Shown: piece after piece, positions 23,134 to 64,000 of the stretch
How the letters are laid out: every line of letters begins with the position of its first letter
How positions within the stretch are numbered: position 1 is the stretch's first letter
Source: Candidatus Deferrimicrobiaceae bacterium
GTDB lineage: Bacteria; Desulfobacterota; Deferrimicrobia; Deferrimicrobiales; Deferrimicrobiaceae
Length of the DNA stretch: 64,000 bases
NCBI GenBank assembly: GCA_963792415.1
Contig: CAWBVY010000004.1
Location: 256,001-320,000 of the forward strand
Direction: 5' to 3'
Made by a program: the position numbers and the translations under genes
Notes under the pieces: generated by a model
Databases searched by the model: none
Told to the model about the DNA's origin: nothing
Seen by the model: the letters and a program-made list of their open reading frames with translations, nothing else

Positions 23134-23140
23134 GAGCGCG

Positions 23141-24070: not shown

Positions 24071-24096
24071 ATCACCCCCGGACCTTCGTCCCCGGA

Positions 24097-39891: not shown

Positions 39892-40290
39892 GTGAGCATC
39901 GAGGACAAGGAGTTGATCGAAACGCGTTTCGGGCCGCTCTGGTCCGGGAAGACCGAGATCGCCTCCCGTGGCGGGGTGCGGACGTTCCGCGACGTGAGAC
40001 GCGCGCTCGACCTGGCGGGAGAGGACGTGATGTCGATCGACCTCCACGAATTGCCTGACGGGAACTTCGCCTACCGCTACTATGACGGCGACGACCGCCG
40101 GGTCGTGGTCCTGGTCTGCGACGCGGAAGGGGGGATCCTCGAGGAGCACCGGGCGCACATCGCGGAGTGGCTGGGGGATCTCTACTACGAAAGCGGCGCA
40201 CTCGCCTACGACGCGGACGCGATGCTCCACCTCCTCCGGAAAAAGAGCGAGGAGGGCGGGGCGCCCTCCGGGGAGGCGGGCCAATGTTGA
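39892..40290 (+). CDS. Hypothetical protein
   Basis: GTG start after AAGGGG; GC3-rich codon pattern; overlaps next ORF. Confidence 0.65.
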   Translation: MSIEDKELIETRFGPLWSGKTEIASRGGVRTFRDVRRALDLAGEDVMSIDLHELPDGNFAYRYYDGDDRRVVVLVCDAEGGILEEHRAHIAEWLGDLYYESGALAYDADAMLHLLRKKSEEGGAPSGEAGQC

Positions 40291-40658
40291 TCTGCCGCAA
40301 GACCCAACTGCGGGAGTCCGCCGCCCAGTGGAACCTCGACGCGCTGGTAGAGAAGCAGGGGAGCGGCACGCTCCCCTGCTTTGTCGCCGTGCTCACCTCG
40401 TATTGCACCGTCCAGGCCCCCAACACGGAGGACGGAGAGGCGATCCTCGGGGACGTGGCCGGGGCGCTGGGCGTCCCCCCGTCTTCTCCCCCGCAGATGG
40501 GGAAGGGCGGCTCGTGCGGCGGGGAGGACGAGGACGGGGAGTTCGCCTTCACGGGGTCGATGATCTCCGCCACCTGGGAATTCCCGAAGGAGCGAAGAAA
40601 TGCCGTTCTCGCCTCCTTCCGCGGGCTCTTCGCCCTGGCGAAAGTGGCCTCAAGATGA
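40284..40658 (+). CDS. Hypothetical protein
   Basis: GGAGG RBS; ATGA coupling to next gene. Confidence 0.65.
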   Translation: MLICRKTQLRESAAQWNLDALVEKQGSGTLPCFVAVLTSYCTVQAPNTEDGEAILGDVAGALGVPPSSPPQMGKGGSCGGEDEDGEFAFTGSMISATWEFPKERRNAVLASFRGLFALAKVASR

Positions 40659-42022
40659 ACTCGTACGTCGAGCTCGTGCGCCGCCGCCTCGAGGACCGGG
40701 GGAACAACATCGTCGGGAACCTCGAACGATTCATGGAACCGCAGCTGCGGTTCACGATGCGGATCTTCGGCGACTGCCTCGACGAGGAGACCCGCGGGAA
40801 GATGTTCGAAGGGTACAGCGAGCACATGTCCGAGAAGGAGCTGCGCTCGTTCGCAGGTGATTTCGTCCCCGCCTACACCGCATATGCGATCGCCGAGCTC
40901 GAGGAGAAAAAGAAGGACGGCGAGCGGCACGAACCCCCCTTCCTTACCCAGGAGGAGTACCAGGAGATGGCGGTCCGGGAGAAGTGGCCCCGGATCGCGG
41001 CGCACATGGACTTTGTTCCCCCCCTCCAGCTGCGCCGCGAGGTCGCGCGCGCGGCGATGCTGTTCCTCCCCGGGATGCTCTCCGACCCCGGGTTCAACGA
41101 GGGGGTCCTCGAGTTCTCCCTCTATTTCGACCTCCTGCAGCGGCTGCGCCCCGTCCCCGAACCGCGGCTGTGGGAAGCGGCCGGGGAGATCGCCCCGCGG
41201 ATCGCCGCGGCCGTCGCGGCGGCGTCGGAGGGGGAGCGGGAGACGCTCCTCCGGGAGATCCGCACCGCGGCGGCGGGGGCGGCGGGGCTGCCCGCCGATC
41301 CGGAGACGCTGCTGGGCCCCCCGATGGAGAAGTACCCGCGGGAGGTCCCGCCGGAATACCGCCTCAGGGAACTGAAGAACACCCTTGCCACGATGACCCT
41401 GAAGGACCTTCGCCTCACCGCGCTGGTCCACCTCGACCTGCTGACCGTCGAGGAGACCCGGCGGATCGTTCTCCCCTTCCTCGCGAAGTTCCCCTCCTTC
41501 TATGAAATGCCTTCGAAGGGGCTGCGGGAGATGATCCTGGCCGTCGCGGCGGGCGTGGACGGCCGGTCGATCACGTACTTCATCGAGCGGTACGGCTCCG
41601 GCTGGCTGGCGATGACGAAGCCGGTCGACTACATCGTATGGAAGCTGATGCCCGAGGAGGAGCGGGTCGACGCGCTCCGGCGGGACAACGAGCGGATGGA
41701 CGCCGCGATGATGGCGCGCCACCTGGCCCGGTACCTCCATTCGGAGAGCGAGCAGGACCTGTCGGACGCCGGGAAGCAGATCGCCCTGCTGACGGACGCG
41801 CGCTTCGTATCGGACCACGGGGCGATCCTCACGCGCCTGGGGGCGGAAAGGGAGGGGGAGCGGATCAAGCGGCTCTACGACACCGTGACGCTGTCGTCCG
41901 CCCGGATGGCGGGGAAACGCGCGGAAGAACGCGAGTCGGCGTACCAGGCGATCCGCGGTTTGATCGCCGACGCGGCGGGAGTCTCCGCCGCGACCAATGA
42001 GGAGGAGGGCAGCGACGGATGA
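40655..42022 (+). CDS. Hypothetical all-helical cytoplasmic protein (455 aa)
   Basis: Long ORF with typical codon usage; ATGA overlaps at both ends. Confidence 0.8.
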   Translation: MNSYVELVRRRLEDRGNNIVGNLERFMEPQLRFTMRIFGDCLDEETRGKMFEGYSEHMSEKELRSFAGDFVPAYTAYAIAELEEKKKDGERHEPPFLTQEEYQEMAVREKWPRIAAHMDFVPPLQLRREVARAAMLFLPGMLSDPGFNEGVLEFSLYFDLLQRLRPVPEPRLWEAAGEIAPRIAAAVAAASEGERETLLREIRTAAAGAAGLPADPETLLGPPMEKYPREVPPEYRLRELKNTLATMTLKDLRLTALVHLDLLTVEETRRIVLPFLAKFPSFYEMPSKGLREMILAVAAGVDGRSITYFIERYGSGWLAMTKPVDYIVWKLMPEEERVDALRRDNERMDAAMMARHLARYLHSESEQDLSDAGKQIALLTDARFVSDHGAILTRLGAEREGERIKRLYDTVTLSSARMAGKRAEERESAYQAIRGLIADAAGVSAATNEEEGSDG

Positions 42023-42225
42023 TCTTCGAATATATGGACAGGATGGTGATGTTCCAGGACACGCCGGAAGGGTTGACGGCGGACATGGCGTGGCTGAAGG
42101 AGGCCGGGGAGAACGGCTGGGAGCTTGTGACCTCCGTCCCCCTGATCGCCCCGAACCGGGACGGGATCGCCTACGGGACGGTGGGGTGCCAGATGGTCCT
42201 GAAACGTTCCAAACAGACGCAATGA
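42019..42225 (+). CDS. Small protein, DUF4177-like
   Basis: FEY...LKEAGENGWELVTSV pattern; GGAGG RBS. Confidence 0.6.
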   Translation: MIFEYMDRMVMFQDTPEGLTADMAWLKEAGENGWELVTSVPLIAPNRDGIAYGTVGCQMVLKRSKQTQ

Positions 42226-42265: not shown

Positions 42266-42304
42266 TTGACACAAAACGGCGTGTTGCTGTATTAATAAAA
42301 CACG
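42266..42304 (+). promoter_or_regulatory. Promoter of the CoA-transferase operon with overlapping inverted repeat
   Basis: TTGACA 42266-71, AT-rich -10 region TATTAAT 42290-96, CGTGTT-N13-AACACG. Confidence 0.55.
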
Positions 42305-42511: not shown

Positions 42512-43939
42512 ATGGCTGAAAAGTGGCGCACGGAAAAGAAGCGGCCCAAAATCAAGGTTCTCCCCTGGCCCGCAATTCCCCCACCGACGGTGGAAGAGGT
42601 TTACGCCGGCGTGGACGAGAAGCGGAAAGAGTACAACCTCTGGGTGGAGTCGGCCGTCCGGCAGCAGTTCAACGCCAACAAGCCGGAGTCGCTGAACGGA
42701 ATCCGCGTCCTCGACATGACGACGAACCAGATCATGGGGCACTGGTGCTCCTCGCACTTCTCGGAGCTCGGCGCCGAGGTCATAATGGTGGAGCCGCCCG
42801 GCGGCGACCCGCTGCGGAAACTCACCCCCTTCGGCCGGGAGGAGTACATGTTCGCCGCCCAGAACGGGGAGAAGTGCGGCATCCGGTTCCTGGCGGAGGC
42901 CCGGAACAAGTTCTCCGTCACCCTCAACATCGATACCGACGAAGGGCGCAACCTGCTGAAGGCGATCATCCCGCAGGTCGACATCCTCATCGAGAACGGC
43001 GCCCCGGGCCATTACGACAGCCTGGGGATCGGCTACCGTCAGCTCTCAGAGATCAACCCGCGGCTGATCTACCTATGGGTCGGCCAGCGCGGCCAGTGGG
43101 GGCCCCTCAAGGATCAGCCCGGCGCCATGGACCCGGTCGCCCAATGCTCGATGGGCTTCGTCCACGGCACCGGCGCCCCCGTGTCGTTCGGCGGCACCCC
43201 GACCCGGTCGGGGTGGTGGCTGTGCGACCAGGTCGGCGGCACCTTCGCGGCGATGGGCGCGATGGCGGCCCTCTACGCCCGGGAGAAGTTCCTCGGGCAC
43301 GGCCAGTTCGTCGAGTGCACGGGGGCCGAGGCGGTCATCCGGATCATCGACTACAACTGGGCGTGGAACGGGATGGACGGCTCCGTCCGTCCCCGCTACG
43401 GGAACTGGGACCTCGCGATCAACATCTACGCGGTCAACCCGTGCGCCGACGGCCAGATCATGGTGGGCGGCGGGCACGACCGGCTCTGGTTCCGGATCTG
43501 GCGGGCCGCCGGGAAGGCGAAGCCGTACCTCGAGCAGCACATCTGCGAGGACCCGAAGCTGCGGGTCGTCACCGACCGGCTTCCGCACTACCAGCAGGTC
43601 GAGACGTACACCACCCTGGTCGAGTGGATGAAGGACTGCACCCGGTTCCAGTGCGAGACGGCGCTGCAGGAAGAGGAAGTCGCCTCGGGCGGCGTGTCGT
43701 TCCTCGACGAGGTCTGCGAGTTCCCGCACTACAAGTACCGCGGCCACGTGCGGCTGCTCGATGACGGCGAGTACGGCCAGGTCCTCCTCGGGGGCTCCAG
43801 CTTCATCGGATCCAACACCCCGGGCCGGATCAAGTGGATCGGCCGGCCGGTCGGCAAGGACAACGAGGACGTGTACCGCGGCCTCGCGGGCCTGAACCGG
43901 CACGAGTTGGCGAGCCTGAAGAAGGGAGGTGTCATCTAA
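42512..43939 (+). CDS. Family III (CaiB/BaiF) CoA-transferase, subunit 1
   Basis: LNGIRVLDMT, ELGAEVIMVEPPGGDPLR, RNKFSVTLNI, INPRLIY, catalytic Asp region WLCDQVGG. Confidence 0.9.
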   Translation: MAEKWRTEKKRPKIKVLPWPAIPPPTVEEVYAGVDEKRKEYNLWVESAVRQQFNANKPESLNGIRVLDMTTNQIMGHWCSSHFSELGAEVIMVEPPGGDPLRKLTPFGREEYMFAAQNGEKCGIRFLAEARNKFSVTLNIDTDEGRNLLKAIIPQVDILIENGAPGHYDSLGIGYRQLSEINPRLIYLWVGQRGQWGPLKDQPGAMDPVAQCSMGFVHGTGAPVSFGGTPTRSGWWLCDQVGGTFAAMGAMAALYAREKFLGHGQFVECTGAEAVIRIIDYNWAWNGMDGSVRPRYGNWDLAINIYAVNPCADGQIMVGGGHDRLWFRIWRAAGKAKPYLEQHICEDPKLRVVTDRLPHYQQVETYTTLVEWMKDCTRFQCETALQEEEVASGGVSFLDEVCEFPHYKYRGHVRLLDDGEYGQVLLGGSSFIGSNTPGRIKWIGRPVGKDNEDVYRGLAGLNRHELASLKKGGVI

Positions 43940-45297
43940 TGGTCGACAAGGCCTTGAAGGACATGACGTTCGAGGATTTCTGCCGCACCGTCTTCAACAC
44001 AAAGGACACGTTCCACAAGCCCGAGGTCCTGAAAGGGATCCGGGCCATCTCCACCACCCAGTACATCCTCGGCCCCTCCTGCGCGGCGTACCTGGCCGAG
44101 CTGGGCGCCGAGACGATCAAGGTCGAGCTGCCGAAGCGGGGCGAGCCGATGCGGCACACCACCCCGTTCAACGAGCCGTTCCTCTACCCCCTCTCCCGGT
44201 GGATGCCGGACAAGGGGACGGGGCTCGGCTTCTTCGGCGCGAACCCGAACGAGCTCTTCATGTCGCTCGACTTCCACAAGCCGGAAGCGATCGAGATCAT
44301 GAAGCGGCTCGCCGCCAAGAGCGACGTCTTCTGCGAGAACTACCGCGCGGGCACGTTCGACCGGTGGGGGATCGGGTACCGGCAGCACGCAGAGATCAAC
44401 CCCCGCGTCATCTATCAATGGATGGGCGGGTTCGGCGGCTGGGGCCCGGGGCGGAACCGCGCCTCGTACGACATCCTCGGCCAGGCGCAGGGCGGCTGCT
44501 TCTCCGTCACCGGGTGGCCGAAGGAGTACGGCGGGATGCCGTCCAAGCAGACGATCTGGATCATGGACTACTGGGGCGGCGCGATCTCCGCGTTCAACAT
44601 CCTCGCCTGCCTCTACTGGCGCGACAACGTGTCGAACAAGGGGAACTTCCTCGAGTACTCCCAGGTGCACGGCGCCCAGCGGCACCTGACCGACTTCATC
44701 GCCCTCTACGGCCGCACGGGCATCGTCGCCCAGCGGTGGGGGAACTGGGAGCCGCTGCTGTGCGTCCACGGGATCCTCAAGTGCGGGAAGTCGTCGTACC
44801 CGAACTCGAAGAACCCGCAGGAGCAGGAAGTCGGCTTCTGCTTCGTCTCCGCCTACAAGGACGACGATTTCAAGAAGCTGTGCGGCGTCGTCGGCAACGC
44901 CGAGCTCGCCAAGAAGTACCCGACCCACGCGGACCGCGTAGGGTCGGATGCCCAGATGGCGATCTACCCCGAGTTGGAGAAGTGGGCCGCCGACAAGACC
45001 AAGGAGCAGGTCTGGAAAGCGTTCACCGATGCCGGCCTGGTCTCCCAGCCGGTGTGGAACTCCAACGAGGCGGCGGAACAGGAGCACTGGCACCTTCGGG
45101 GCTCGATGCTGTGGCTCGACGACCCGACCTTCGGGGACGTCCTGACCCAGGGAGTTCCGTACCGGCTGTCCGAGACGCCGGGCCGGATCAAGAACGTCTT
45201 CAAGCCGGTCGGCGCGGACAACGAGTACGTCCTGGCCAAGCTGTGCGGCTACGGCGGCTCCGAGATCGCCGCGCTCGAGAAGAACGAGATCATCTAA
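43939..45297 (+). CDS. Family III (CaiB/BaiF) CoA-transferase, subunit 2
   Basis: LKGIRAI, LGAETIKVE, ENYRAG, SYDILGQAQGG, WIMDYWGG; TAATG coupling. Confidence 0.9.
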   Translation: MVDKALKDMTFEDFCRTVFNTKDTFHKPEVLKGIRAISTTQYILGPSCAAYLAELGAETIKVELPKRGEPMRHTTPFNEPFLYPLSRWMPDKGTGLGFFGANPNELFMSLDFHKPEAIEIMKRLAAKSDVFCENYRAGTFDRWGIGYRQHAEINPRVIYQWMGGFGGWGPGRNRASYDILGQAQGGCFSVTGWPKEYGGMPSKQTIWIMDYWGGAISAFNILACLYWRDNVSNKGNFLEYSQVHGAQRHLTDFIALYGRTGIVAQRWGNWEPLLCVHGILKCGKSSYPNSKNPQEQEVGFCFVSAYKDDDFKKLCGVVGNAELAKKYPTHADRVGSDAQMAIYPELEKWAADKTKEQVWKAFTDAGLVSQPVWNSNEAAEQEHWHLRGSMLWLDDPTFGDVLTQGVPYRLSETPGRIKNVFKPVGADNEYVLAKLCGYGGSEIAALEKNEII

Positions 45298-45313
45298 CAA
45301 GAATAAGGAGGTA

Positions 45314-45712
45314 ATGATGAGCAGTCCTTTCCGCGAGACGTCGCTCATACTTGAATGTCCGAAGTGCGAGACATTGAACTACCTTGATCCGTTCACCTTC
45401 TGGAACTTCAAGGGGAAGATCAAGTGCGCCGGCTGCGATGCCGTCTGGGCATACGAGCTGGTGAACGGGACCCGGACCGCCGCGCCGGCCGCCGCCACGG
45501 GGCCGCACGACAAGATGCCCGGGTACGCCCAGAGCAAGGACTGGAAGTCGATCACGGACCCCACGAAGGTCAACAAGGGGCCGCAGGCCCGCGAGGACTT
45601 CCAGGGGAAGCCGATCGCGATCACCAAGAGCAAGCGCGGCAACCCGGTGTCGGGCGCTCCGCTGAAGCCGGAAGATCTGGTCGGAAGCCGCCCGAAGCAG
45701 TTCGCGAAGTAA
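45314..45712 (+). CDS. Zinc-ribbon protein of unknown function
   Basis: TAAGGAGG RBS; CPKC..CAGC. Confidence 0.8.
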   Translation: MMSSPFRETSLILECPKCETLNYLDPFTFWNFKGKIKCAGCDAVWAYELVNGTRTAAPAAATGPHDKMPGYAQSKDWKSITDPTKVNKGPQAREDFQGKPIAITKSKRGNPVSGAPLKPEDLVGSRPKQFAK

Positions 45713-45760
45713 CGGTCGGTTCGCGGCGAAAGAACCAGGAATCTACAAAGGAGGAGAACC

Positions 45761-45949
45761 GTGGCAACTATTCCGAACTGTGCGAAGTGCAACAACTTCG
45801 TGCCCGCGACCGACCCGCATATCTCCAAGGTCTACTCGGGCCAGTGCACGAAGCTCGAATGGCCGTACAATATCAACATCCCGAAGGTCGACGGGATCGA
45901 GGGGGAGTGCGGTTTCTACGAGGGGCCCGGACCCGCGACCCTGAAGTAG
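45761..45949 (+). CDS. Small 4-Cys protein (HiPIP/BssC-like spacing), putative Fe-S carrier
   Basis: AAGGAGG RBS; CAKCNNF..GQC..GECGFY. Confidence 0.7.
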   Translation: MATIPNCAKCNNFVPATDPHISKVYSGQCTKLEWPYNINIPKVDGIEGECGFYEGPGPATLK

Positions 45950-45998
45950 GAAAAAGGTCCTTGAACCGACCGTCGCCGGTCTGATAGATTAGCGACGC

Positions 45999-46055
45999 GG
46001 CAAATCCACGGCCGCCCTGTGGTTTTCACAAGCGCGGCCGTGGATTTTGCCTTTC
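45999..46055 (+). terminator. Strong intra-operon hairpin (terminator or mRNA stabiliser)
   Basis: GGCAAATCCACGGCCGC...GCGGCCGTGGATTTTGCC followed by TTTC. Confidence 0.6.
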
Positions 46056-46105
46056 AGGGGCTCCATGTCTTCCAAAATACACACCACGAAGGAGGGTTCA
46101 CAGCG

Positions 46106-46480
46106 ATGAAGGTGGAATTCTACTACGACAGTACGGTACCGCCCGGGTCCGCGTTCCCCTGCGACAACGCCAAAGCCGTCGAGCTGATCGGACAGCTGGC
46201 GGCCAAGGGGGTCAACGCCAAGGCCACCGACCTCAAGGGCCAGCAGGTCGGGTTCATGACGTACAACGCCGCTGTGACGGGACCCAAGTCCCAGGTCCGC
46301 GCCGTGTTCGGCGCGAAAGGCGCCTTGCAGGAAGACTTCGGGAAGAACGTCCCGGCCCTCCTCCTGTTCGAGAAGGACGACGACCGTTATCCCAACGAGG
46401 CGTTTCCCCGCAGCGACAAGGAGCTGATGAAGCTGATCAGCTGCGAGGAGATGCTCCAGACGCTCCTGGCGAAGGCGTAA
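46106..46480 (+). CDS. Hypothetical protein, possible thioredoxin-like fold
   Basis: AAGGAGG RBS; MKVEFYY..PC..FGKNVPALLLF. Confidence 0.7.
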   Translation: MKVEFYYDSTVPPGSAFPCDNAKAVELIGQLAAKGVNAKATDLKGQQVGFMTYNAAVTGPKSQVRAVFGAKGALQEDFGKNVPALLLFEKDDDRYPNEAFPRSDKELMKLISCEEMLQTLLAKA

Positions 46481-46550
46481 CACCGCATACCCACACGAGG
46501 ACCGCCGGGCCGTTCCCGGCCCGGCGGGCCCTCTCACGAAGGGGGGAGTG

Positions 46551-48191
46551 ATGGCAAAGATACCCGAGAGCTACCTGCCGCCGCCCGAGCTGCGGCCCCA
46601 GCGGATCTACACGCTTGATGAGTTCAAGAACATCCCGCAGAAGTTCAACTCCACCGAAGTCCTCCTCGACCAGACGGCAGCGAAATACGGCGACAAGGTC
46701 GCGATCTACTTCGACGAGCAGCGGGTCACCTACAAGCAGCTCCAGGCGAGCGTCAACCGCGTCGCCAACGGGCTGAAGAAGCTCGGCGTCGAGGAGGGGG
46801 ACCGCGTCCTGATGCGGATGCCCAACATCGTGCCGATCATCGTGTGCAACTTCGCGATCATCAAGATCGGCGCCGTCTCCCTTCCGACCTCGGTCCTCTT
46901 CTCCCGGTCGGAGATCGCGCATGTCGCGAACGTGTCGGAAGCGAAAGTGATCATCGTCGCGGCGGTGATGCTGGCAGAGCTGGAGGCCGCGAAGGCCGAC
47001 CTGAAGTTCGCCAAGACGATCGTCGTGGTGGGCGGCGACGAGAACGAGGTCCGGGCGAAGGGGTACGTCCCGTACGCCGACCTGATGAAGAACCCCGACC
47101 AGTGCGAGGCGGTCAAGCGCGACCGGATGGACGTTTCCGTCCTCCTCTTCACCTCGGGGACGACGGGGCTCCCCAAGGGGACGGCCCACTTCATGGAAGA
47201 GTCGCTGATCGTCGCCGACGGGTTCGGGAAGTATTGCTGGGAGGTGTCCGACAAGGACGTGATCGGCGGCCCGGCGCCCCTCGCGATGGCGGCGGGGTAC
47301 TCCACCGTCGGTGTCATCCCGTTCCGGTTCGGCGCGGCCGTCTCCCTCATCGGGAAGTTCGACCCGGTCGCGATGTTCAAGAACATCCAGAACCACAGGA
47401 TCACGATCATGACGGCCCTTCCGACCGCGTACCGGAAGATGCTGGTCGACATCAACCCGAAAGAGTGGGACTACTCCTCCCTGCGGTTCTGCACCGGCGG
47501 CGGCGAGGCGCTCACCGCCAAGACGTACCTCGACTGGAAGGAGAAGTTCGGGCTGGAGATCTACGAGGGGCTCGGCACCACCGAGATGATGTTCGTGTTC
47601 ATCTCCGCGGCGGTGACGAAGAAGGTCAAGCCAGGACCGATCGGGACGGCGTGCCCCGGCTACGACGTCCGCGTGGTGAACGAGAGCTTCGAGCAGGTCA
47701 AGCCCGGCGAGGTCGGCAAGATGATCGTCCGGGGACCCACGGGGACGATCTACTGGAAGGACAACGAGAAGCAGAAGTCGTCGGTCCGCGACGGCTGGTG
47801 CCTGGCGGGCGACGTCGTCACGATGGACGAGGACGGGTACGTCCAGTTCCTCTCCCGCGAGGACGACCTGATCAAGTCGTCCGGCTACCGGATCGGGCCC
47901 GAGGAGATCGAGGAGGCCCTGGTGATGCACCCGTCCGTCGCCGACGCCGGGGTGGTCGGCGTTCCCGACCCGGTGATCGGGCAGAAGACCAAGGCGTTCG
48001 TGCAGCTCAAGCCCGGCGTCGCGCCGTCCGAGGAGCTGAAGAAGGAGCTCGTCGAGCATTGCAAGGGGAAGGTCGCCGTGTACAAACTGCCGCGGGAGAT
48101 CGAGTTCATCGACGCGATGCCCCGGACGGCGGTCGGCAAGCTGCTTCGCCGCATCCTGCGCCAGCAGGAGATCGACAAGGCGAAGAAGTAA
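46551..48191 (+). CDS. AMP-forming acyl/aryl-CoA ligase (2-aminobenzoate/benzoate-CoA ligase-like)
   Basis: FTSGTTGLPKG, EGLGTTE, GD, REDDLIKSSGYRIGPEEIE, PRTAVGKLLR; N-terminal YLPPPELRP. Confidence 0.9.
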   Translation: MAKIPESYLPPPELRPQRIYTLDEFKNIPQKFNSTEVLLDQTAAKYGDKVAIYFDEQRVTYKQLQASVNRVANGLKKLGVEEGDRVLMRMPNIVPIIVCNFAIIKIGAVSLPTSVLFSRSEIAHVANVSEAKVIIVAAVMLAELEAAKADLKFAKTIVVVGGDENEVRAKGYVPYADLMKNPDQCEAVKRDRMDVSVLLFTSGTTGLPKGTAHFMEESLIVADGFGKYCWEVSDKDVIGGPAPLAMAAGYSTVGVIPFRFGAAVSLIGKFDPVAMFKNIQNHRITIMTALPTAYRKMLVDINPKEWDYSSLRFCTGGGEALTAKTYLDWKEKFGLEIYEGLGTTEMMFVFISAAVTKKVKPGPIGTACPGYDVRVVNESFEQVKPGEVGKMIVRGPTGTIYWKDNEKQKSSVRDGWCLAGDVVTMDEDGYVQFLSREDDLIKSSGYRIGPEEIEEALVMHPSVADAGVVGVPDPVIGQKTKAFVQLKPGVAPSEELKKELVEHCKGKVAVYKLPREIEFIDAMPRTAVGKLLRRILRQQEIDKAKK

Positions 48192-48230
48192 CGGGGGATA
48201 CCGCGCTTCACGGCGCGGTGGCGGGACCGG

Positions 48231-48267
48231 AGCCCGGGGGCGTGCCGCCCCCGGGCTTTCTTCGTTT
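48231..48267 (+). terminator. Intrinsic terminator after the ligase
   Basis: AGCCCGGGGG...CCCCCGGGCT followed by TTCTTCGTTT. Confidence 0.65.
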
Positions 48268-49645: not shown

Positions 49646-50071
49646 ATGGCGGCTCCCCTCTCGCACACGATCGAGATCCGCGTCCGGTTCGGCGAGACCG
49701 ACCCGTACGGCGTGGCGTACTTCGCCGCGATCCTCGACTACTTCAAGCGCGGGATGGACGAGTTCCTCCGGTCCCGCGGACTCTCTCCCGACCTCGCGTA
49801 CCGGAACCCGAAGCGGAACTACGGGTTCCCCGTCGTGGCTACCGCCTGCCGCTACAGGGCCCCGGTCCGGTTCGACGACCTGCTGATGCTGCGGACCCGC
49901 GTCGTGCGGGTGGAGAAAAGCGGGGCCACGTTCGGCTTCTCCCTGTTCCGCACGGAGGCGGGGAAGGATATCCTGGCGGCGGAGGGACGGATCTCCTGCC
50001 GCTCCATCGACTCCTCCTGGACGCCGATCCCCCTGCCGGCGGAGCTGATAAACATCTTATCCGCCCGCTGA
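49646..50071 (+). CDS. Hotdog-fold acyl-CoA thioesterase (4HBT/YbgC-like)
   Basis: IRVRFGETDPYGVAY, CRYRAPVRFDD. Confidence 0.87.
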   Translation: MAAPLSHTIEIRVRFGETDPYGVAYFAAILDYFKRGMDEFLRSRGLSPDLAYRNPKRNYGFPVVATACRYRAPVRFDDLLMLRTRVVRVEKSGATFGFSLFRTEAGKDILAAEGRISCRSIDSSWTPIPLPAELINILSAR

Positions 50072-50860
50072 GGCGGCGCGTGCAGCGTCCAGCTTCCTCC
50101 GGAAGCGGTTGACCAGCGCCGCCACCGCCGGCGGGGAAAGTTCCCTCCCCTCGATCTTGAAGACATCCGCCCCCGCGGCGATCCAGACCGGGAGTTCGTC
50201 CTCGAGGGAGTTGGGCGCTTCCGGGACCGGCAGGGTCCGGCAAACCAGGCGGCAGCTCCCCCCCCGTTTCGCGGAGGCCGTCCCGCCCCCGATCCCCTCG
50301 ACGACGTATCCGGTCAACCCGCACTTTCCGTGAAGGAGGAACTCCGGGCGGGAGTACGCGAAGACCTCGATCCGAAGCCCCGACGCCTTCTTGATGGGGG
50401 GAATCTCCCCGGGCCGGACCGCCGAGGGGAGGACGACGGCGACGACCCCCAGGTCCCGGTACGCACGGGCATCCTCGGGGTTGAGGACGGAGAGTCCGAC
50501 CGAGGCGCAGAGCGGCCAGCCGGGGAACTCCCGCCGCGCGAGCGCGATCACCCCGGGATCGTTCAGGATCACCTCGTCGACCCCTGCGTCCCGGAGCCGA
50601 TGGAGGTACACCAGGAAGGCGGGGAGATCGCCGGACGACGGAACGGCGTTGATCGCGGCGTGAAGCCGCGCCCCCGCCCGCAGGCAGACGGAAACCGCCG
50701 CCCCGACTTCCTCCGGGGAGAGCCCCGTCCTGCCGCCACGGGAGAGGGAACGGACCCCGACGTAGACGGCGTCGGCCCCCGCCGACAGCGCCGCCTCGAC
50801 CGCGGGGAGGGATCCCGCCGGCGCGAGGAGGGTCGGTGATGGGGGGGACGCCAGGGCCAT
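50057..50860 (-). CDS. Peptidase U32-family Fe-S protein
   Basis: LLAPAGS, GADAVYVG, ILNDPG, GKC..CRLVCR, FKIEGR. Confidence 0.87.
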   Translation of the reverse strand: MALASPPSPTLLAPAGSLPAVEAALSAGADAVYVGVRSLSRGGRTGLSPEEVGAAVSVCLRAGARLHAAINAVPSSGDLPAFLVYLHRLRDAGVDEVILNDPGVIALARREFPGWPLCASVGLSVLNPEDARAYRDLGVVAVVLPSAVRPGEIPPIKKASGLRIEVFAYSRPEFLLHGKCGLTGYVVEGIGGGTASAKRGGSCRLVCRTLPVPEAPNSLEDELPVWIAAGADVFKIEGRELSPPAVAALVNRFRRKLDAARAASAGG

Positions 50861-51087: not shown

Positions 51088-51483
51088 ATGCTGGTCGAAT
51101 ACGCAACCGTTCTTGTGTTCATCGTACTTGGGGCGGTCACCGTCGCCTTGATGCTCGGGCTCTCGCGCTGGTTCGCCCCGACCGCCCCCTCGGCCGCGAA
51201 GTCCTCCACCTACGAGTGCGGGGAGGTCCCGTACGGCTCCTCATGGGTGCAGTTCAACATCCGATTCTACGTGGTGGCGCTCATCTTCATCATCTTCGAC
51301 GTCGAAGTGGCGCTCCTGTACCCCTGGGCCGTGGTCTTCCAGCGGCTGGGCTGGCTCGCCTTCATCGAGGCGTTCATCTTCATCGTGATTCTGCTCGCCG
51401 GGCTGGCGTACCTGTGGAAGGAGGGGGACCTCGAGTGGGTCCGCACAATGCAGGACGCCCCGGCGAAGAAGGGTGCGAAATGA
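51088..51483 (+). CDS. nuoA: NADH-quinone oxidoreductase subunit A (copy 1)
   Basis: [20 protein letters not shown]. Confidence 0.95.
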
Positions 51484-52013
51484 GTTCTGATCCGGCGCAC
51501 GCCCAGCCCCCGGGACACGGGAGTGCCCCGGTTCCGGGGCTCGGGCCCGAGGCGCACGTCATGGTGGGCAACGCGGACCTGTTCGTCAACTGGGCTCGAA
51601 AATCCTCGCTCTGGTACCTCCTGTTCGCCACGGCGTGCTGCGGCATCGAGCTGATGCAGGCGGGCGCGTCGCGGTACGACATGGACCGGTTCGGCGCGGT
51701 CTTCCGCGCCACCCCCCGCCAGGCGGACCTGATGCTGGTGGCCGGCACGATCACCCACAAGATGGCGGAGCGGGTAAAGCGCCTCTACGACCAGATGCCC
51801 GAGCCCAAGTACGTGATCTCCATGGGATCGTGCGCCAACACCGGGGGCCCGTTCTTCAAGGACTCGTACTGCGTGGTCAAGGGCGTGGACCTGATCATCC
51901 CGGTGGACGTCTACATCCCCGGCTGCCCCCCTCGCCCCGAGGCGCTGATCGACGGGATCATGAAGTTGCAGAAGATCATCATGCAGCGCAAAAATTACGG
52001 CGCCAAGGCGTGA
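51480..52013 (+). CDS. nuoB: NADH-quinone oxidoreductase subunit B (copy 1)
   Basis: [25 protein letters not shown]. Confidence 0.96.
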
Positions 52014-52029
52014 GGCGAAGGGAAACCGG

Positions 52030-52500
52030 TTGGAAGGCCAGGCGATTTTCGACACATTGAAGGGGAAGTTCGGCGACGCCGTCGTCGAGCTGCAGGGGGA
52101 GGGCTATTCCCCCGCCTTCGTGGTCGTCGCCGCGGCGGCGGTGAAAGAGGTCTCCCGGTTCCTAAAGGAGGACCCGAGCCTCTCCTTCGACGTCCTCATG
52201 TGCCTTTCCGGGGTGGATTACAAGGAGAAGTTCGCCGTCGCCTACCATCTCCACTCCCTGAAACACCGCCACGCGATCGGTCTCAAGGCGATGCTCCCCC
52301 GCGAGAACCCGTCCCTCCCGACGGTGGACGACGTCTGGCCCGCCGCCAATTTCAACGAGCGGGAGGCGTTCGACCTGTTCGGGATCGTGTTCGAGGGCTC
52401 GAAGGACCTCCGCCGGATCCTTCTCCCGCCGGACTGGGAGGGGCACCCGCTGCGGAAGGATTACAAGTATCCCGACTTCTACCACGGGATCAAGGTATGA
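52030..52500 (+). CDS. nuoC: NADH-quinone oxidoreductase subunit C (copy 1)
   Basis: EREAFDLFGI, WEGHPLRKDY. Confidence 0.94.
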   Translation: MEGQAIFDTLKGKFGDAVVELQGEGYSPAFVVVAAAAVKEVSRFLKEDPSLSFDVLMCLSGVDYKEKFAVAYHLHSLKHRHAIGLKAMLPRENPSLPTVDDVWPAANFNEREAFDLFGIVFEGSKDLRRILLPPDWEGHPLRKDYKYPDFYHGIKV

Positions 52501-53627
52501 CGACCCGGTCCAACGCGCTCCCCACGCAGGAGATGACGATCAACATGGGGCCGCAGCACCCGAGCACCCACGGGGTGCTCCGGGTGATCCTCACCACCGA
52601 CGGCGAGGTGGTGACCCGCGCGGTGCCCGACGTCGGCTACCTGCACCGGGGGCTCGAGAAGATCGGCGAGCGCGTCACCTACGCCCAGTTCATGCCGTTC
52701 ACGGACCGCCTCGACTACCTCGCGGCGATGAACTGCAACTGCGCCTGGGCGTGGGCGGTCGAGAAGCTGGCGAAGATCGAGGTTCCCGAGCGCGCCGAGT
52801 TCCTGCGCGTCATCGTCTCCGAGCTGAACCGGATCTCCTCCCACCTGATCGCGTTCGGGTCGTACACCGCGGACATGGGGGCGTTCACCCCGTTCCTGTA
52901 CGCCATCCGGGAGCGGGAGCAGGTCAACGACCTTTTCGAGATGCTCTGCGGGAACCGCCTGACGTACAACTACGCCCGCGTCGGCGGCGTCTCGGGCGAT
53001 GCCCCTCCGGGCTTTCTCGAGAAGACGAAGGAGTTCCTCGACTACTTCGAGCCGAAGCTCGACGAGTACAACAACCTCATCTCCTACAACAAGATCTTCG
53101 TCCACCGGCTGGCGAACGTCGCCGTGATCCCCGCGGAGGAGGCGGTCGCCTACGGGCTGACGGGCCCCAACCTGCGCGGCTCCGGCGTCCACTTCGACCT
53201 TCGGAAGGACGAGCCGTACTCCGTCTACCCGAAGTTCGATTTCAAGGTCTGCGTCGGCACCGGGGAGCGCGGCACGCTCGGCGACTGCTTCGACCGGTAC
53301 ATGGTGCGGATCAACGAGATGCGCGAGAGCGTCAAGATCGTCCGGCAGGCGGTCGCGCAGATCCCCGACGGGCCCGTGCTGGCGAAGGTCCCCCGCGTCT
53401 TCAAGCCGCCGGTCGGCGAGACGTACTTCCGCTCCGAGTGCCCGCGCGGGGAGACGGGGATCTACCTGATCAGCGACGGCTCGGTGAACCCGTACCGGCT
53501 GAAGATCCGCACCGGCTCCTTCGTGTCGATGAACATCTTCGAGAAGATCACGAGAGGGCTGATGATCGCGGACATCGTCGCCGTCATCGGCAGCTTCGAC
53601 ATCATCCTTCCGGAGATCGATCGATAG
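52497..53627 (+). CDS. nuoD: NADH-quinone oxidoreductase subunit D (copy 1)
   Basis: NMGPQHPSTHGVLR, GYLHRGLEK, DRLDY, C-terminal EIDR; no NiFe CxxC motifs. Confidence 0.96.
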   Translation: MTTRSNALPTQEMTINMGPQHPSTHGVLRVILTTDGEVVTRAVPDVGYLHRGLEKIGERVTYAQFMPFTDRLDYLAAMNCNCAWAWAVEKLAKIEVPERAEFLRVIVSELNRISSHLIAFGSYTADMGAFTPFLYAIREREQVNDLFEMLCGNRLTYNYARVGGVSGDAPPGFLEKTKEFLDYFEPKLDEYNNLISYNKIFVHRLANVAVIPAEEAVAYGLTGPNLRGSGVHFDLRKDEPYSVYPKFDFKVCVGTGERGTLGDCFDRYMVRINEMRESVKIVRQAVAQIPDGPVLAKVPRVFKPPVGETYFRSECPRGETGIYLISDGSVNPYRLKIRTGSFVSMNIFEKITRGLMIADIVAVIGSFDIILPEIDR

Positions 53628-61563: not shown

Positions 61564-61590
61564 CCCACCGAAAGGCGTGAGGGGGCTCCC

Positions 61591-61974
61591 ATGGTCGGAT
61601 TTCCCGCAACCGTGGACTTCTCGAACCCGTACTTCGCGGTTCTCCTGCTTCTAATCATCGCGCTGGTGATGTCGGTGGGATTCGTCCTCCTCTCCCAGGC
61701 GCTGGGCCCGAAGCGGTACGACCGGGTCAAGTACGGCGTGTACGAGTGCGGCGTCGACCCCCTCACCCCGGCCGCCGTGCGCGTCTCCGTCAAGTTCTAC
61801 CTGATCGCGATCCTGTTCATCCTCTTCGACCTCGAGGTGACCTTCCTCTACCCGTGGGCGGTCCTGTTCCGTTCGCTCGGGTTGTTCGGCTTCATCGAGA
61901 TGGCCGTCTTCGTCGGAATCCTGCTGGTCGGGCTGGTCTACGCGTGGAAAAAGGGAGCCCTCGAATGGCAGTGA
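61591..61974 (+). CDS. nuoA: NADH-quinone oxidoreductase subunit A (copy 2)
   Basis: [28 protein letters not shown]. Confidence 0.95.
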
Positions 61975-62465
61975 AGCGCGGGAAGGACGGCGCCTCCGGC
62001 TACGCGCTCACGACCCTCGAGTCGCTGATCGCCTGGGGGAGGAAATACTCCCTCTACCCGTTCACCTTCGCCACGGCGTGCTGCGGCATCGAGGTGATGG
62101 GGGCGTTCGGGACCCACTACGACCTGTCCCGCTTCGGCGCCGAGGTCGTCCGTTTCTCTCCCCGGCAGGCGGATGTGCTTCTGGTGGCGGGGACGATCAA
62201 CTACAAGATGGCTCCCGTGCTGAAGCGGATCTACGACCAGATGCTCGAGCCGAAGTGGGTGATCTCGATGGGCGCGTGCGCCTGCTCCGGCGGCTTCTAC
62301 AACAACTACACGGTCCTGCAGGGGATCGACAAGATCGTTCCGGTCGACGTCTACATCCCCGGGTGCCCGCCGAACCCCGAGGGGATCATCGACGCCGTTG
62401 TGCAGATCCAGAAGATCATCGAGACCGGCGCGCCCCGCGCGGCGGAACGGTGGCCGTTGAAATGA
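61965..62465 (+). CDS. nuoB: NADH-quinone oxidoreductase subunit B (copy 2)
   Basis: [26 protein letters not shown]. Confidence 0.96.
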
Positions 62466-62481
62466 AGGGGCGGGAAGCGGC

Positions 62482-62958
62482 GTGAGCATCGTCCTCGAGA
62501 GGCTGCGGGAGCGGTTCCCGGCGGAAGTGGAGTCCACCCACTCGGACTTCGGGGACGACACGGCCTTAGTGCGGCGGGAGCGGATCGTCGAGATCCTCGC
62601 GTTCCTGCGGGACGACCCGGAGCTGCTTTTCGACTTCGCGATGGACCTGACCGGCGTCGACTATCTCGGGGAGGAGCCCCGCTTCGAGGTGGTCTACCAC
62701 CTCTACTCGCTGGAGAAGAAGCGCCGCGTCCGGATCAAGGCGCGGCTCCACGAGGACGACCCGGTGATCGACACGGCCGTCCCGGTGTGGCCCGGAATCG
62801 ACTGGTACGAGCGGGAGGCGTGGGACATGTACGGGATCGTCTTCCGCGGCCACCCGAACCTGAAGCGGATCCTGATGTACGAGGCGTTCGAGGGGCACCC
62901 GTTGCGCAAGGATTACCCGAAGGCGAAGCGTCAGCCCACGATCGGGCCGGAGGAGTAG
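62482..62958 (+). CDS. nuoC: NADH-quinone oxidoreductase subunit C (copy 2)
   Basis: WYEREAWDMYGI, FEGHPLRKDYP. Confidence 0.95.
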   Translation: MSIVLERLRERFPAEVESTHSDFGDDTALVRRERIVEILAFLRDDPELLFDFAMDLTGVDYLGEEPRFEVVYHLYSLEKKRRVRIKARLHEDDPVIDTAVPVWPGIDWYEREAWDMYGIVFRGHPNLKRILMYEAFEGHPLRKDYPKAKRQPTIGPEE

Positions 62959-62965
62959 GAAGGCG

Positions 62966-64000
62966 ATGGCGGAACCGGTACAAGTCACGGCGAAGGTCGG
63001 GAGGCCCGACCTGCAGGCCGAGCCGATGCTCATCAACATCGGCCCGTCCCACCCGGCGACGCACGCGACGCTGCGGTTCCAGGCGACGCTCGACGGGGAG
63101 ACGATCCTGGACCTGGTGCCGGAGTTCGGCTACCTGCACCGCGGGTTCGAGAAGGAGTCCGAGGCCGCCACCTGGACCCAGGTGGTCCCGTACACCGACC
63201 GGCTGAACTACGTCTCGCCGCTCATGAACAACGTAGGGTACGCGATGGCGGTGGAGAAACTGTGCGGCATCGAGATCACGGAGCGGTGCAAATACGTCCG
63301 CGTCATCATCTCGGAGCTCTCCCGGATCATCGACCACATGGTGTGCGTCGGGACGAACATGGTCGACCTCGGCGCGTTGACGAACTTCTGGTACTTCTGG
63401 AAGCCGCGCGAGGAGGTCTACTTCCTGATCGAGGAGCTGTGCGGGCAGCGGCTGACCACTTCCTACACCCGGATCGGCGGGGCGATGGCGGACCTGCCGG
63501 AGGGGTGGACCGACCGGGTCCTCGCGGTCTGCCGCGGCGTGATCCCCGAGTGCATCGCGGACGTGAACGCCCTCCTGACGAAGAACCGGATCTTCATCGA
63601 GCGGACGATGGGCGTGGGGCCGATTTCCGCGAAGGACGCCGTCGCCCTTGGGTTCACCGGACCGTGCCTGCGGGCGGCGGGGGTCCCCCTCGACCTGCGG
63701 AAGGACGAGCCGTACCTCGTGTACGACCGGTTCGACTTCGACGTGGCCATCGGCGAGGCGGGCGACACGTGCGACCGGTACATGGTGCGCATGGAGGAGA
63801 TGCGGCAGTCGCTCCGGATCATCGAACAGGCGGTAGCGCAACTCCCCGGCGGCCCCATCAACATCGACGACCCCCGGTTCCTCCTTCCGGAGAAACCGCA
63901 GGTGTACGAGAACATCGAGGCGCTGATGAACCACTTCAAGTTCATCATGGAGGGGGTCAAGGTCCCGGCCGGCGAGGTGTACTCGGCGACGGAGGCGGCG
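62966..64000 (+). CDS. nuoD: NADH-quinone oxidoreductase subunit D (copy 2, runs off window end)
   Basis: Translated manually: NIGPSHPATHATLR, GYLHRGFEK, DRLNYVSP. Confidence 0.94.
   Translation, partial: MAEPVQVTAKVGRPDLQAEPMLINIGPSHPATHATLRFQATLDGETILDLVPEFGYLHRGFEKESEAATWTQVVPYTDRLNYVSPLMNNVGYAMAVEKLCGIEITERCKYVRVIISELSRIIDHMVCVGTNMVDLGALTNFWYFWKPREEVYFLIEELCGQRLTTSYTRIGGAMADLPEGWTDRVLAVCRGVIPECIADVNALLTKNRIFIERTMGVGPISAKDAVALGFTGPCLRAAGVPLDLRKDEPYLVYDRFDFDVAIGEAGDTCDRYMVRMEEMRQSLRIIEQAVAQLPGGPINIDDPRFLLPEKPQVYENIEALMNHFKFIMEGVKVPAGEVYSATEAA

Follow-up and report, generated by a model that had tools for sequence, protein, structure and literature searches.

Six genes occupy one unit on the + strand, at positions 42512-48191 of the window (the whole stretch of 64,000 nucleotides analysed here, from a Candidatus Deferrimicrobiaceae bacterium). 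They follow the order T1-T2-Zn-S62-P153-Lig, with a promoter-like site on the 5' side and a terminator hairpin on the 3' side. The frames of all six + strand genes have coding-type GC3 values of 0.80-0.94; the genes listed in an initial annotation of this DNA are real and lie essentially where it had placed them. That annotation described strong ribosome binding sites for most genes, and GGAGG RBS-like sites are found 5' of T1, T2, Zn, S62, and P153; nor is there any dehydrogenase, decarboxylase, or glycyl-radical gene within or adjoining the operon, as it had stated. The putative promoter, read from the sequence at 42266..42295 (+), consists of TTGACA-18 nt-TATTAA and lies within AT-rich spacer DNA, roughly 215 nt before T1; it is absent from the list of a consensus scan whose -10 hexamer must end in T. 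A terminator-like hairpin with 14 pairs (11 G-C) and a T-rich tail follows the operon at 48229..48259 (+). No known RNA or riboswitch was matched in the leader and spacers (Rfam, E < 0.1).

T1 (42512..43939, +, 475 aa) and T2 (43939..45297, +, 452 aa) are paralogous family III CoA-transferase proteins. They match PF02515 (CaiB/BaiF/Frc; cut-off 23.3 bits) with 265.6 and 260.2 bits, respectively, over profile positions 1-365 of 366. The two genes are translationally coupled through an overlap, TAATG, between the stop codon of T1 and the start codon of T2. The catalytic Asp of family III enzymes forms an acyl-aspartyl anhydride, and the putative nucleophiles D239 of T1 and D210 of T2 both align to the Asp of the solved Frc-type chain 10uh_A. 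Both positions are retained among homologues: position 239 of T1 holds D in 34 of 36 sequences and E in the other two, and D210 of T2 is D in all 36. N-terminal extensions of about 60 aa (T1) and 30 aa (T2) precede the Pfam domain. T1 is 60-96% identical to 35 homologues and has 11 invariant Trp residues; T2 likewise has many. The coupled CaiB/BaiF pair with catalytic Asp, extensions, and Trp residues that was originally proposed is therefore confirmed. No NCBIfam cut-off for a named family III equivalog is reached: the six models listed, which cover formyl-CoA, succinate-glutarate, succinyl-CoA:mesaconate, oxalate, and carnitine transferases, all score far below threshold, with best values of 129.9 for T1 and 150.4 for T2 against 442.

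T1 and T2 share 32% identity, and their mutual score of 195 bits is higher than that of either with any solved member of family III (at most 112 bits). The top T1 matches are Frc/YfdW and succinate-hydroxymethylglutarate/succinyl-CoA:glutarate CoA-transferases (10uh_A, the best PDB match, 111.6 bits; 9br7, 105.7 bits), which also provide the top NCBIfam models, although their equivalog cut-offs are far off (129.9 versus 442 and 120.8 versus 750). Frc-type and glutarate-type transferases are homodimers that are not known to have accessory subunits. An oxalate/formate (Frc-Oxc) function was rejected, as the locus has no TPP/oxalyl-CoA decarboxylase gene and the scores are far below cut-off. CaiB is a more distant relative (E 5e-8 to 6e-7). 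Benzylsuccinate CoA-transferase BbsEF (9fn0) resembles the pair in having two adjacent paralogous PF02515 subunits, and its chains rank near the top of the solved proteins matched (T2 with 9fn0_B, its best PDB match, 104.9 bits; T1 with 9fn0_A, 92.5 bits). Because the mutual score of 195 bits exceeds that against either Bbs chain, the T1/T2 duplication is independent of BbsEF, and a one-to-one equation of T1 with BbsE and T2 with BbsF was discarded. The flanks of the operon also lack bbs-type beta-oxidation genes. Heteromeric members of family III also include SmtAB and the phthalate CoA-transferases; the kinship to BbsEF and phthalate transferases suggested initially gains no specific support, given the 195 bits between T1 and T2 versus at most 112 to solved members. 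Whereas T1/T2 are accompanied by three small proteins, we know of no report of dedicated small partner proteins for BbsEF.

The last gene encodes Lig (46548..48191, +, 547 aa), an AMP-forming acyl/aryl-CoA ligase with AMP-binding and AMP-binding_C domains (PF00501 and PF13193), which make it a general ANL enzyme. Its best solved relative is anthranilate-CoA ligase 4wv3 (274 bits), in agreement with the earlier comparison to 2-aminobenzoate-CoA ligase, with an acetyl-CoA synthetase, benzoate-CoA ligases, and ACSM2A next in rank. The alignments of Lig with 4wv3, the benzoate-CoA ligases, and ACSM2A extend over the full length (232-274 bits). Its best NCBIfam model, NF004837, is not reached (396 versus cut-off 476). 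The score against the benzoate-CoA ligase family TIGR02262 is 335.4 versus a cut-off of 375.25, and with this cut-off missed, an aromatic substrate is possible but no more than a lead.

The third gene encodes the Zn protein (45314..45712, +, 132 aa), which combines an N-terminal ribbon with two CxxC pairs and a long conserved tail. Three of its cysteines (C18, C38, C41) are invariant among 36 sequences, and the fourth, C15, shows at least 90% conservation. Pfam Zn_ribbon_5 scores 17.8 bits against a cut-off of 29.3, and a profile search of PDB sequences found no relative. The family is small, with 78 representatives at E <= 1e-3 among 1.84 billion. No Zn protein fused within a longer protein was found, which is weak evidence. 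Of the longer matches in the representative search, P0143 and P0133 look frameshifted and P0151 has an unrelated C-terminal part. Complex modelling with three chains predicts that Zn binds the T1/T2 pair, with a median ipSAE of 0.71 (best control 0.00). Three runs, whose output comprised scores and contact lists, gave 0.71, 0.75, and 0.71, with at least 91% contact agreement and partner pLDDT of at least 80. The ipSAE mark used is reached by 116 of 157 solved complexes and 2 of 215 mismatched pairs, counts that are only roughly valid here because the Zn model used custom alignments and a three-chain job. Since Zn has no solved relative by sequence, the score is unlikely to have been memorised, for this partner, from a solved complex. 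Modelled Zn behaves like a structural strap: it runs across T1, makes contact with T2, and has a long extended tail. The modelled interface is not significantly enriched in invariant residues, either on T1 (17 of 38 versus 135 of 422 elsewhere, p = 0.08), on T2 (p = 0.94), or on Zn (p = 0.85). The initial suggestion that a small protein could be a subunit of the transferase pair thus gains predicted support in the case of Zn. Zn-ribbon scaffolds are known from the DUF35 protein of the archaeal thiolase/HMG-CoA synthase complex and from BbsA with BbsB. Zn resembles them in being a small Cys4 ribbon protein encoded beside CoA-ester enzymes that it is predicted to bind; however, it has no DUF35/OB-fold match and its predicted partner is a family III transferase rather than a thiolase.

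S62 (45761..45949, +) is a 62-aa Cys mini-protein without a Pfam family. It has four Cys in the window and in most lineages, as first described, but their positions shift or vanish in other lineages. P153 (46106..46480, +, 124 aa) has no Pfam or NCBIfam family either; its start was set by homologue alignment and RBS, and the conserved start is the ATG at 46106 behind GGAGG, not 46019. The AF2 model of its domain has pLDDT values of 85-96, and Foldseek returns thioredoxin, ArsD, glutaredoxin, and GST-N folds only, weakly (E >= 0.14; target-normalised TM 0.34-0.51). P153 lacks a CxxC motif, and in some homologues and lineages another residue takes the place of its only Cys. The thioredoxin-like label given to it earlier therefore stands only as a weak likeness of fold, with a later start and no CxxC, and P153 falls outside the thioredoxins and glutaredoxins as marked by the fold plus CxxC or CxxS. 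An ESM Atlas match of P153 to Gfo/Idh/MocA C-terminal clusters (0.88, at most 113 shared features) was set aside as chance-level by the tool's guidance. Of 17 representative loci, 8 encode S62 and P153 as a single fused ORF. Four longer P153 relatives (226-297 aa, no Pfam domain) have lengths that fit S62-P153 fusions or over-long ORFs, and the S62-P153 profile found nothing significant among PDB sequences. The spacer between the two genes holds a structured RNA or DNA element (45969..46054, +) of two hairpins, the second being a 17-bp stem followed by TTT. The spacer folds with -66.5 kcal/mol (z = -5.1), and the element is nearly invariant in 12 loci, with a variable loop and compensatory changes at 3 pairs. 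It has no Rfam match, and a dispersed repeat was dismissed because there is one copy per locus and none elsewhere in the window.

In line with the electron or metal partners suggested initially, Zn and S62 could be Fe(Cys)4 electron carriers of the rubredoxin type, with P153 as redox partner and the transferase-like pair part of a redox enzyme. The two conserved CxxC pairs of Zn and the four Cys of S62 in most lineages would fit this, as would one Campylobacterales locus in which nifS, nifU, and an Rrf2-type gene lie divergently beside the operon. We consider it very improbable: the S62 cysteines are not conserved in position, P153 has neither CxxC nor a constant Cys, none of the six proteins has a flavin, Fe-S, or nicotinamide domain, and Zn is modelled as a strap.

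The gene set was surveyed in the best 80 of 244 related loci, of which those on long enough contigs are informative. These loci come from MAGs labelled as Deferrimicrobia-type "Deltaproteobacteria", Methylomirabilota/Rokubacteria, Acidobacteriota, Campylobacterota, and Armatimonadota. Gene order is kept in nearly all informative loci, among which T2 is present in 61 of 61, Zn in 61 of 61, S62 in 59 of 61, P153 in 57 of 58, and Lig in 45 of 47. The small ORFs are thus conserved with the transferases across phyla, and between phyla T1 and T2 retain 60-65% identity. One Campylobacterales locus has the six genes by themselves, flanked by housekeeping genes unrelated to them, so that they make up a self-contained module. 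No curated family or solved structure was found that explains the whole set, and the gene set is not described in the literature searched, an absence that is unproven because most subscription journals were beyond reach. With no NCBIfam equivalog cut-off reached as well, the initial view that the cluster matches no characterised pathway holds. The intact operon across several uncultured phyla points to an undescribed multi-subunit organic-acid-activating enzyme.

Several neighbours recur in the 41 loci of at least 15 kb among these best 80 of 244. In the window, c6 (39892..40290, +, 132 aa; no Pfam match), U646 (40658..42022, +, about 454 aa), and U68 (42019..42225, +, 68 aa) precede T1, and they occur in 33, 23, and 30 of the 41 loci, respectively. 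c6 often has two copies elsewhere. U646 neighbours the operon in Deferrimicrobia-type and some NC10 loci; it is all-helical (AF2 pLDDT 91.4), with no Pfam or NCBIfam family, no fold match against the PDB in Foldseek (all E > 0.001, TM <= 0.16), and no usable ESM Atlas match. U68 is 53-96% identical in other phyla and weakly DUF4177-like (17 bits, cut-off 25). A U32-family gene, UbiU/TrhP-like, lies at 50057..50860 (-) with a PF01136 match. Across the best 80 of 244 loci, an MFS transporter lies beside T1 in 9 loci of Acidobacteria- or Rokubacteria-type and passes the NCBIfam L-lactate transporter equivalog (406.6 versus cut-off 320), and IclR-type regulators flank the operon in 20 loci of NC10-type. 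An MFS transporter adjoining the operon in Acidobacteria-type loci recalls BaiG of the bai operon. The wider surroundings are core genes: ATP synthase and nuo genes in the window, and the dcw cluster in NC10-type loci.

This setting allows a housekeeping or biosynthetic role, in which the operon supplies or recycles a CoA-activated aromatic intermediate for neighbouring U32 enzymes, which would be prephenate-dependent, O2-independent hydroxylases, for example in low-oxygen quinone or cofactor synthesis. One to three U32 copies occur within 10 kb in 27 of the 41 loci, in differing arrangements and at least four lineage groups. The operon lies among core genes and is kept in a MAG chromosome of 2.3 Mb (L019). 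PMC10990095 discusses U32 proteins as hydroxylases with mostly uncharacterised subfamilies. We nevertheless regard such a role as improbable. The Campylobacterota and Armatimonadota loci have no U32 gene within 10 kb, and neither have 14 of the 41 long loci. The U32 proteins also have only PF01136 membership and lie far below the UbiU, UbiV, and TrhP cut-offs (window protein versus UbiU NF047963, 104.8 against 440; two in locus L073, 59.8 against 440 and 84.1 against 275), and the adjoining transporter and IclR regulators fit catabolism better.

The reading we favour, held tentatively and with a little less than even confidence, is that the six genes specify a family III CoA-transferase of several subunits plus its priming ligase. 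T1 and T2 would form the heteromeric core, with the Asp nucleophile kept in both, Zn would be a non-catalytic third subunit across T1 and touching T2, and the S62-P153 unit may be a further accessory part. At the cost of ATP, Lig would convert an imported carboxylic acid, most likely a monocarboxylate of aromatic or medium-chain type, into the first acyl-CoA. The T1/T2 complex would then move CoA from the product thioester to fresh substrate, so that ATP is paid once. In favour of this reading are the two full-length, coupled paralogues with their nucleophiles kept, the conserved gene order, the S62-P153 fusions, the Zn model, the solved relatives of Lig, and the adjoining MFS transporter and IclR-type regulators. 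Ligase-primed cycles are known for CaiC/CaiB (carnitine), BaiB/BaiF (bile acids), FldL/FldA (phenyllactate), and BbuE/BbuBC (gamma-butyrobetaine). As here, an AMP-forming ligase is encoded with one or more family III transferases in these systems, and the CaiC/CaiB, BaiB/BaiF, and FldL/FldA pairs follow the logic proposed for Lig and T1/T2. Unlike the six-gene operon, however, their operons add a thioester-acting dehydratase, dehydrogenase, or reductase. With six conserved genes but no enzyme acting on the CoA ester, a plain transfer cycle would be idle unless distant or variable genes supply that step. The thioester-changing step would thus lie outside the six genes, perhaps in recurrent neighbours, among which the putative O2-independent U32 hydroxylases would be the best candidates. 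The presence of transporter, regulator, and U32 genes each in part of the loci only counts against the transferase reading, as do the lack of significant enrichment of invariant residues at the modelled Zn interface and the missed TIGR02262 cut-off of Lig. So does the identity of T1/T2 between phyla together with the core-region location, a pattern unusual for a peripheral catabolic enzyme.

The missing step would disappear if T1/T2, Zn, and S62-P153 together formed a thioester-dependent isomerase, racemase, intramolecular transferase, or lyase on the family III fold. Such an enzyme would take the acyl-CoA product of Lig straight as its own substrate, and the six genes would be a complete two-step module; alpha-methylacyl-CoA racemase, mesaconyl-CoA C1-C4 transferase, ThnP, and DddD would be its models. 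The solitary Campylobacterales locus, with no other thioester enzyme nearby, agrees with this, as do the unusual conservation of T1/T2 across phyla with many family-specific invariant residues and the presence of racemases and intramolecular transferases among solved or described relatives. The three dedicated accessory proteins also argue for something other than an ordinary transferase: to our knowledge the family III CoA-transferases described so far are either homodimers or heteromers of simple make-up, and we know of no counterpart with three such proteins. Against it stand the transferase-typical Asp kept in both subunits, a weak objection because racemases use the same Asp, and the fact that no product can be proposed. 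We judge this chemistry rather unlikely.

A broader reading, also unlikely although we give it some weight, is that T1, T2, Zn, and S62-P153 are an unprecedented five-protein holoenzyme on the family III fold, which with Lig (and in many lineages U32, c6, U68, and U646) would carry out thioester chemistry other than plain transfer and would be widespread and near-housekeeping. If true, this would be a pathway of uncultured soil and groundwater phyla that is absent from model organisms.

A version of family III with three dedicated accessory proteins, conserved to this degree across little-cultured phyla, would be a new architecture. The operon would mark a step of carbon metabolism that lacks an assignment in MBNT15/Deferrimicrobia, NC10/Rokubacteria, and Acidobacteria, which are abundant in soil and groundwater. 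The six-gene set is compact, which makes direct expression and assay feasible, and its linkage to U32 genes could yield the first non-quinone, non-RNA substrate of the U32 family.

Six plus-strand genes occupy 42512–48191 of the window, in which G+C content is ~67% and real frames were chosen from third-position G+C (GC3) together with homology. They encode two paralogous family III CoA-transferases, T1 (42512–43939, 475 aa) and T2 (43939–45297, 452 aa), a two-CxxC zinc-ribbon-like protein, Zn (45314–45712, 132 aa), a Cys-containing mini-protein, S62 (45761–45949, 62 aa), a thioredoxin-fold-like protein, P153 (46106–46480, 124 aa), and an AMP-forming CoA ligase, Lig (46548–48191, 547 aa). The same six genes were recognized in the initial annotation, and this observation is confirmed with minor corrections; for example, P153 starts at 46106 and not at 46019, an upstream GTG that is rejected because neither homologues nor a ribosome-binding site support it. 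The T1 stop overlaps the T2 start in TAATG, and GGAGG-type sites precede five of the six genes. A promoter-like TTGACA-18-TATTAA, read by eye and unscored by the scan, lies in the AT-rich 290-nt spacer 5′ of the operon, and a terminator-like 14-pair hairpin with a T-rich tail lies downstream of Lig at 48229–48259. Housekeeping genes flank the operon. Those on the upstream side encode ATP synthase a, c and gene-1 and a class III aminotransferase, and the downstream side has nuo genes, a U32-family gene and a gene for an AI-2E-family transporter. Two separate complex I gene sets occur in the window at ~51.1–53.6 kb (51088–53627) and ~61.6–64.0 kb (61564–64000), each with chain 3 (nuoA-like), 30-kDa and 49-kDa subunit genes, and three antiporter-like subunit genes lie between them. 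The frame scan also reveals a 1509-codon plus-strand open frame with coding-type GC3 at 23134–27660.

Homologues of T1 are numerous in metagenome-assembled genomes (MAGs) and metagenomes, with ~55–97% identity over the aligned part, and carry only the names "CoA transferase" or "CaiB-like". When one genome per species was scanned by pattern, 244 loci encoding a relative were obtained, and the best 80 of them were fetched together with flanks of up to 10 kb. MAG labels place these best 80 of 244 loci in Deltaproteobacteria/Candidatus Deferrimicrobia, Methylomirabilota/NC10/Rokuibacteriota, Acidobacteriota/Terriglobia, Campylobacterota, Armatimonadota and a few other groups; some labels conflict with sequence similarity, and binning errors are possible. 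Four loci (L003, L026, L046 and L075) have Actinomycetota, Limnocylindria or Anaeromyxobacteraceae labels that conflict with their sequences, which are 83–95% identical to Deferrimicrobia-type loci or group with Rokubacteria- or Acidobacteria-type loci, so title-based phylum counts should be taken cautiously. The order T1-T2-Zn-S62-P153-Lig is constant throughout the fetched loci in tblastn searches with the window proteins. Among those of the best 80 that are long enough for the gene concerned, T2 and Zn are each present in 61 of 61, S62 in 59 of 61 (absent from L078 and L080), P153 in 57 of 58 (absent from L078) and Lig in 45 of 47 (absent from L043 and L078). The small ORFs are, therefore, conserved with the transferases; a lack of such conservation was what the initial annotation had named as refuting its reading. 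Identity to the window proteins in the most distant loci is ~60–65% for T1/T2, 47–59% for Lig, 43–56% for P153, 44–49% for Zn and 34–42% for S62. A Campylobacterales locus has the six genes and one extra ORF isolated between nifS/nifU/Rrf2-type genes and unrelated genes; the extra ORF (L069, 13330–13695, 121 aa) lies between S62 and P153 and has no Pfam family. In the Methylomirabilia-labelled L078 (9926–17036), a second T1/T2-like pair is inserted after Zn, P153 lies further downstream, and neither S62 nor Lig was found within the stretch examined.

T1 and T2 are both full-length family III CoA-transferases (265.6 and 260.2 bits to PF02515), and no curated NCBIfam equivalog comes anywhere near its cut-off for either. 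Their best solved relatives, at ≤112 bits, are Frc-type formyl-CoA transferase, succinate-hydroxymethylglutarate CoA-transferase and both benzylsuccinate CoA-transferase chains. The two proteins share 32% identity and 195 bits, which exceeds their similarity to any solved relative; the pair is therefore a lineage-specific duplication and is not orthologous to BbsE/BbsF. The acidic nucleophile position is conserved in both, with D in 34 and E in 2 of 36 T1 sequences and D in 36 of 36 T2 sequences. Lig is an ANL-superfamily ligase; among solved structures it is closest to anthranilate-CoA ligase (274 bits), an acetyl-CoA synthetase (252), benzoate-CoA ligases (~230–242) and ACSM2A (233), and its score for the benzoate-CoA ligase family stays under the curated cut-off.

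In Zn, a conserved ribbon with two CxxC pairs is followed by a long tail with conserved motifs. It belongs to a tiny family, with 78 representatives at E ≤ 1e-3, 48 at ≤ 1e-10 and 10 at ≤ 1e-30 among 1.84 billion, and has no solved relative. Modelling supports binding of Zn to the T1/T2 pair. In three-chain models (T1 16–475, T2 10–452 and Zn 12–108, with a 36-row alignment per chain), Zn on T1/T2 reached a median ipSAE of 0.71 over three runs compared to 0.00 for the best of three controls, with contact agreement of at least 91% and partner pLDDT of at least 80; the calibration counts for passing the mark (116 of 157 for solved complexes, 2 of 215 for mismatched pairs) are only roughly valid for a three-chain job with its own alignments. 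Modelled Zn contacts are mainly with T1 (residues 222–228, 285–298, 309–312 and 346–375) and also with T2 (residues 76–80, 198–200, 291–294, 392 and 399–402). Invariant positions are not significantly enriched at this modelled interface in T1 (p = 0.08), and T2 and Zn have no enrichment.

S62 and P153 match no Pfam or NCBIfam family. Of the 17 representative loci in which S62 was located, 8 have the two as a single ORF; one of these is NC10-type, one is Deferrimicrobia-type and the others are Acidobacteria- or Armatimonadota-type. This Rosetta-stone pattern ties them into one functional unit. An AF2 model of the L012 fusion has a mean pLDDT of 80.9 (85–96 in the P153 part and 54–71 in the S62 part); a Foldseek search against the PDB produced no match at E ≤ 0.001, and its weak top matches are nearly all thioredoxin-class folds. 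The S62 cysteines shift or disappear across lineages and P153 has no CxxC, so calling S62 a "metalloprotein" or giving P153 a redox role appears unsupported. The spacer between S62 and P153 carries an additional conserved element. In the window it comprises two hairpins at 45969–46054, and it is near-invariant across 12 Deferrimicrobia-type loci in which the flanking genes are just 60–83% identical. Its second stem has 17 bp, a variable loop, compensatory changes at 3 pairs and a short T run afterwards, and the spacer folds at −66.5 kcal/mol (z = −5.1). The element occurs once per locus and has no Rfam match, and its exact 17-base arm was not found in loci with fused S62-P153. A possible role is attenuation within the operon, or else RNA processing or stability.

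ORFs of all fetched loci were clustered and scanned, and recurrent neighbours were counted over the 41 loci of at least 15 kb. Three families without Pfam assignment accompany the operon in several phyla (window 39892–42225; L073 15743–19970; others): c6, a family of ~120–130 aa often in two copies (39892–40290; 33 of 41 loci), U68, of 68 aa and weakly DUF4177-like (42019–42225; 30 of 41), and U646, of ~454 aa (40658–42022; 23 of 41), for which a confident all-helical AF2 model (pLDDT 91.4) has no fold match in the PDB. Other neighbours are lineage-specific: IclR-type regulators (20 of 80 loci), an MFS transporter scoring above the NCBIfam cut-off for the L-lactate transporter equivalog (406.6 vs 320; 9 of 80), a 4HBT thioesterase, an HDAC-type amidohydrolase and alpha/beta hydrolases.

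The best-supported reading is that the operon encodes a ligase-primed, multi-subunit family III CoA-transferase. Lig would form the first thioester from an imported acid, and a T1/T2 core, strapped by Zn and with S62-P153 alongside, would recycle CoA. The relatives of the ligase, together with the IclR regulators and the hydrolases and amidohydrolase nearby, hint at a monocarboxylate substrate that is aromatic or otherwise medium-sized. The main weakness of this model is that the conserved six include no thioester-modifying enzyme; in addition, the operon proteins are conserved, and placed in the genome, in the manner of core genes. Two serious rivals are therefore retained. The complex itself could be the catalyst of a thioester-dependent isomerisation or cleavage, or it could partner U32 enzymes in a biosynthetic route. 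U32-family genes (UbiU/UbiV/TrhP-like, far under cut-offs) occur in one to three copies within 10 kb of the operon in 27 of the 41 long loci, as a tandem triple in NC10- and Acidobacteria-type loci (e.g., L036 16806–19605; L073 4948–7719) and singly in the window's lineage (50057–50860, minus strand). U32 proteins are discussed as probable hydroxylases that depend on prephenate but not on O2, and most of their subfamilies are uncharacterised (PMC10990095).

The initial annotation proposed an anaerobic organic-acid pathway in which small metalloproteins may be subunits of, or electron or metal partners for, the transferase pair. That interpretation is supported in part only: Zn is predicted to sit on the transferase pair, and metal or redox roles for S62 and P153 appear unsupported. 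No description of this gene set was found in full-text literature searches, whose coverage is incomplete, so that this is no proof of novelty, and passages on CoA-transferase and related terms in a Deferrimicrobium-type MBNT15 genome paper do not mention it (PMC9386147). The operon, widespread in uncultured phyla, would represent a family III CoA-transferase that comes with dedicated accessory subunits and a ligase of its own.
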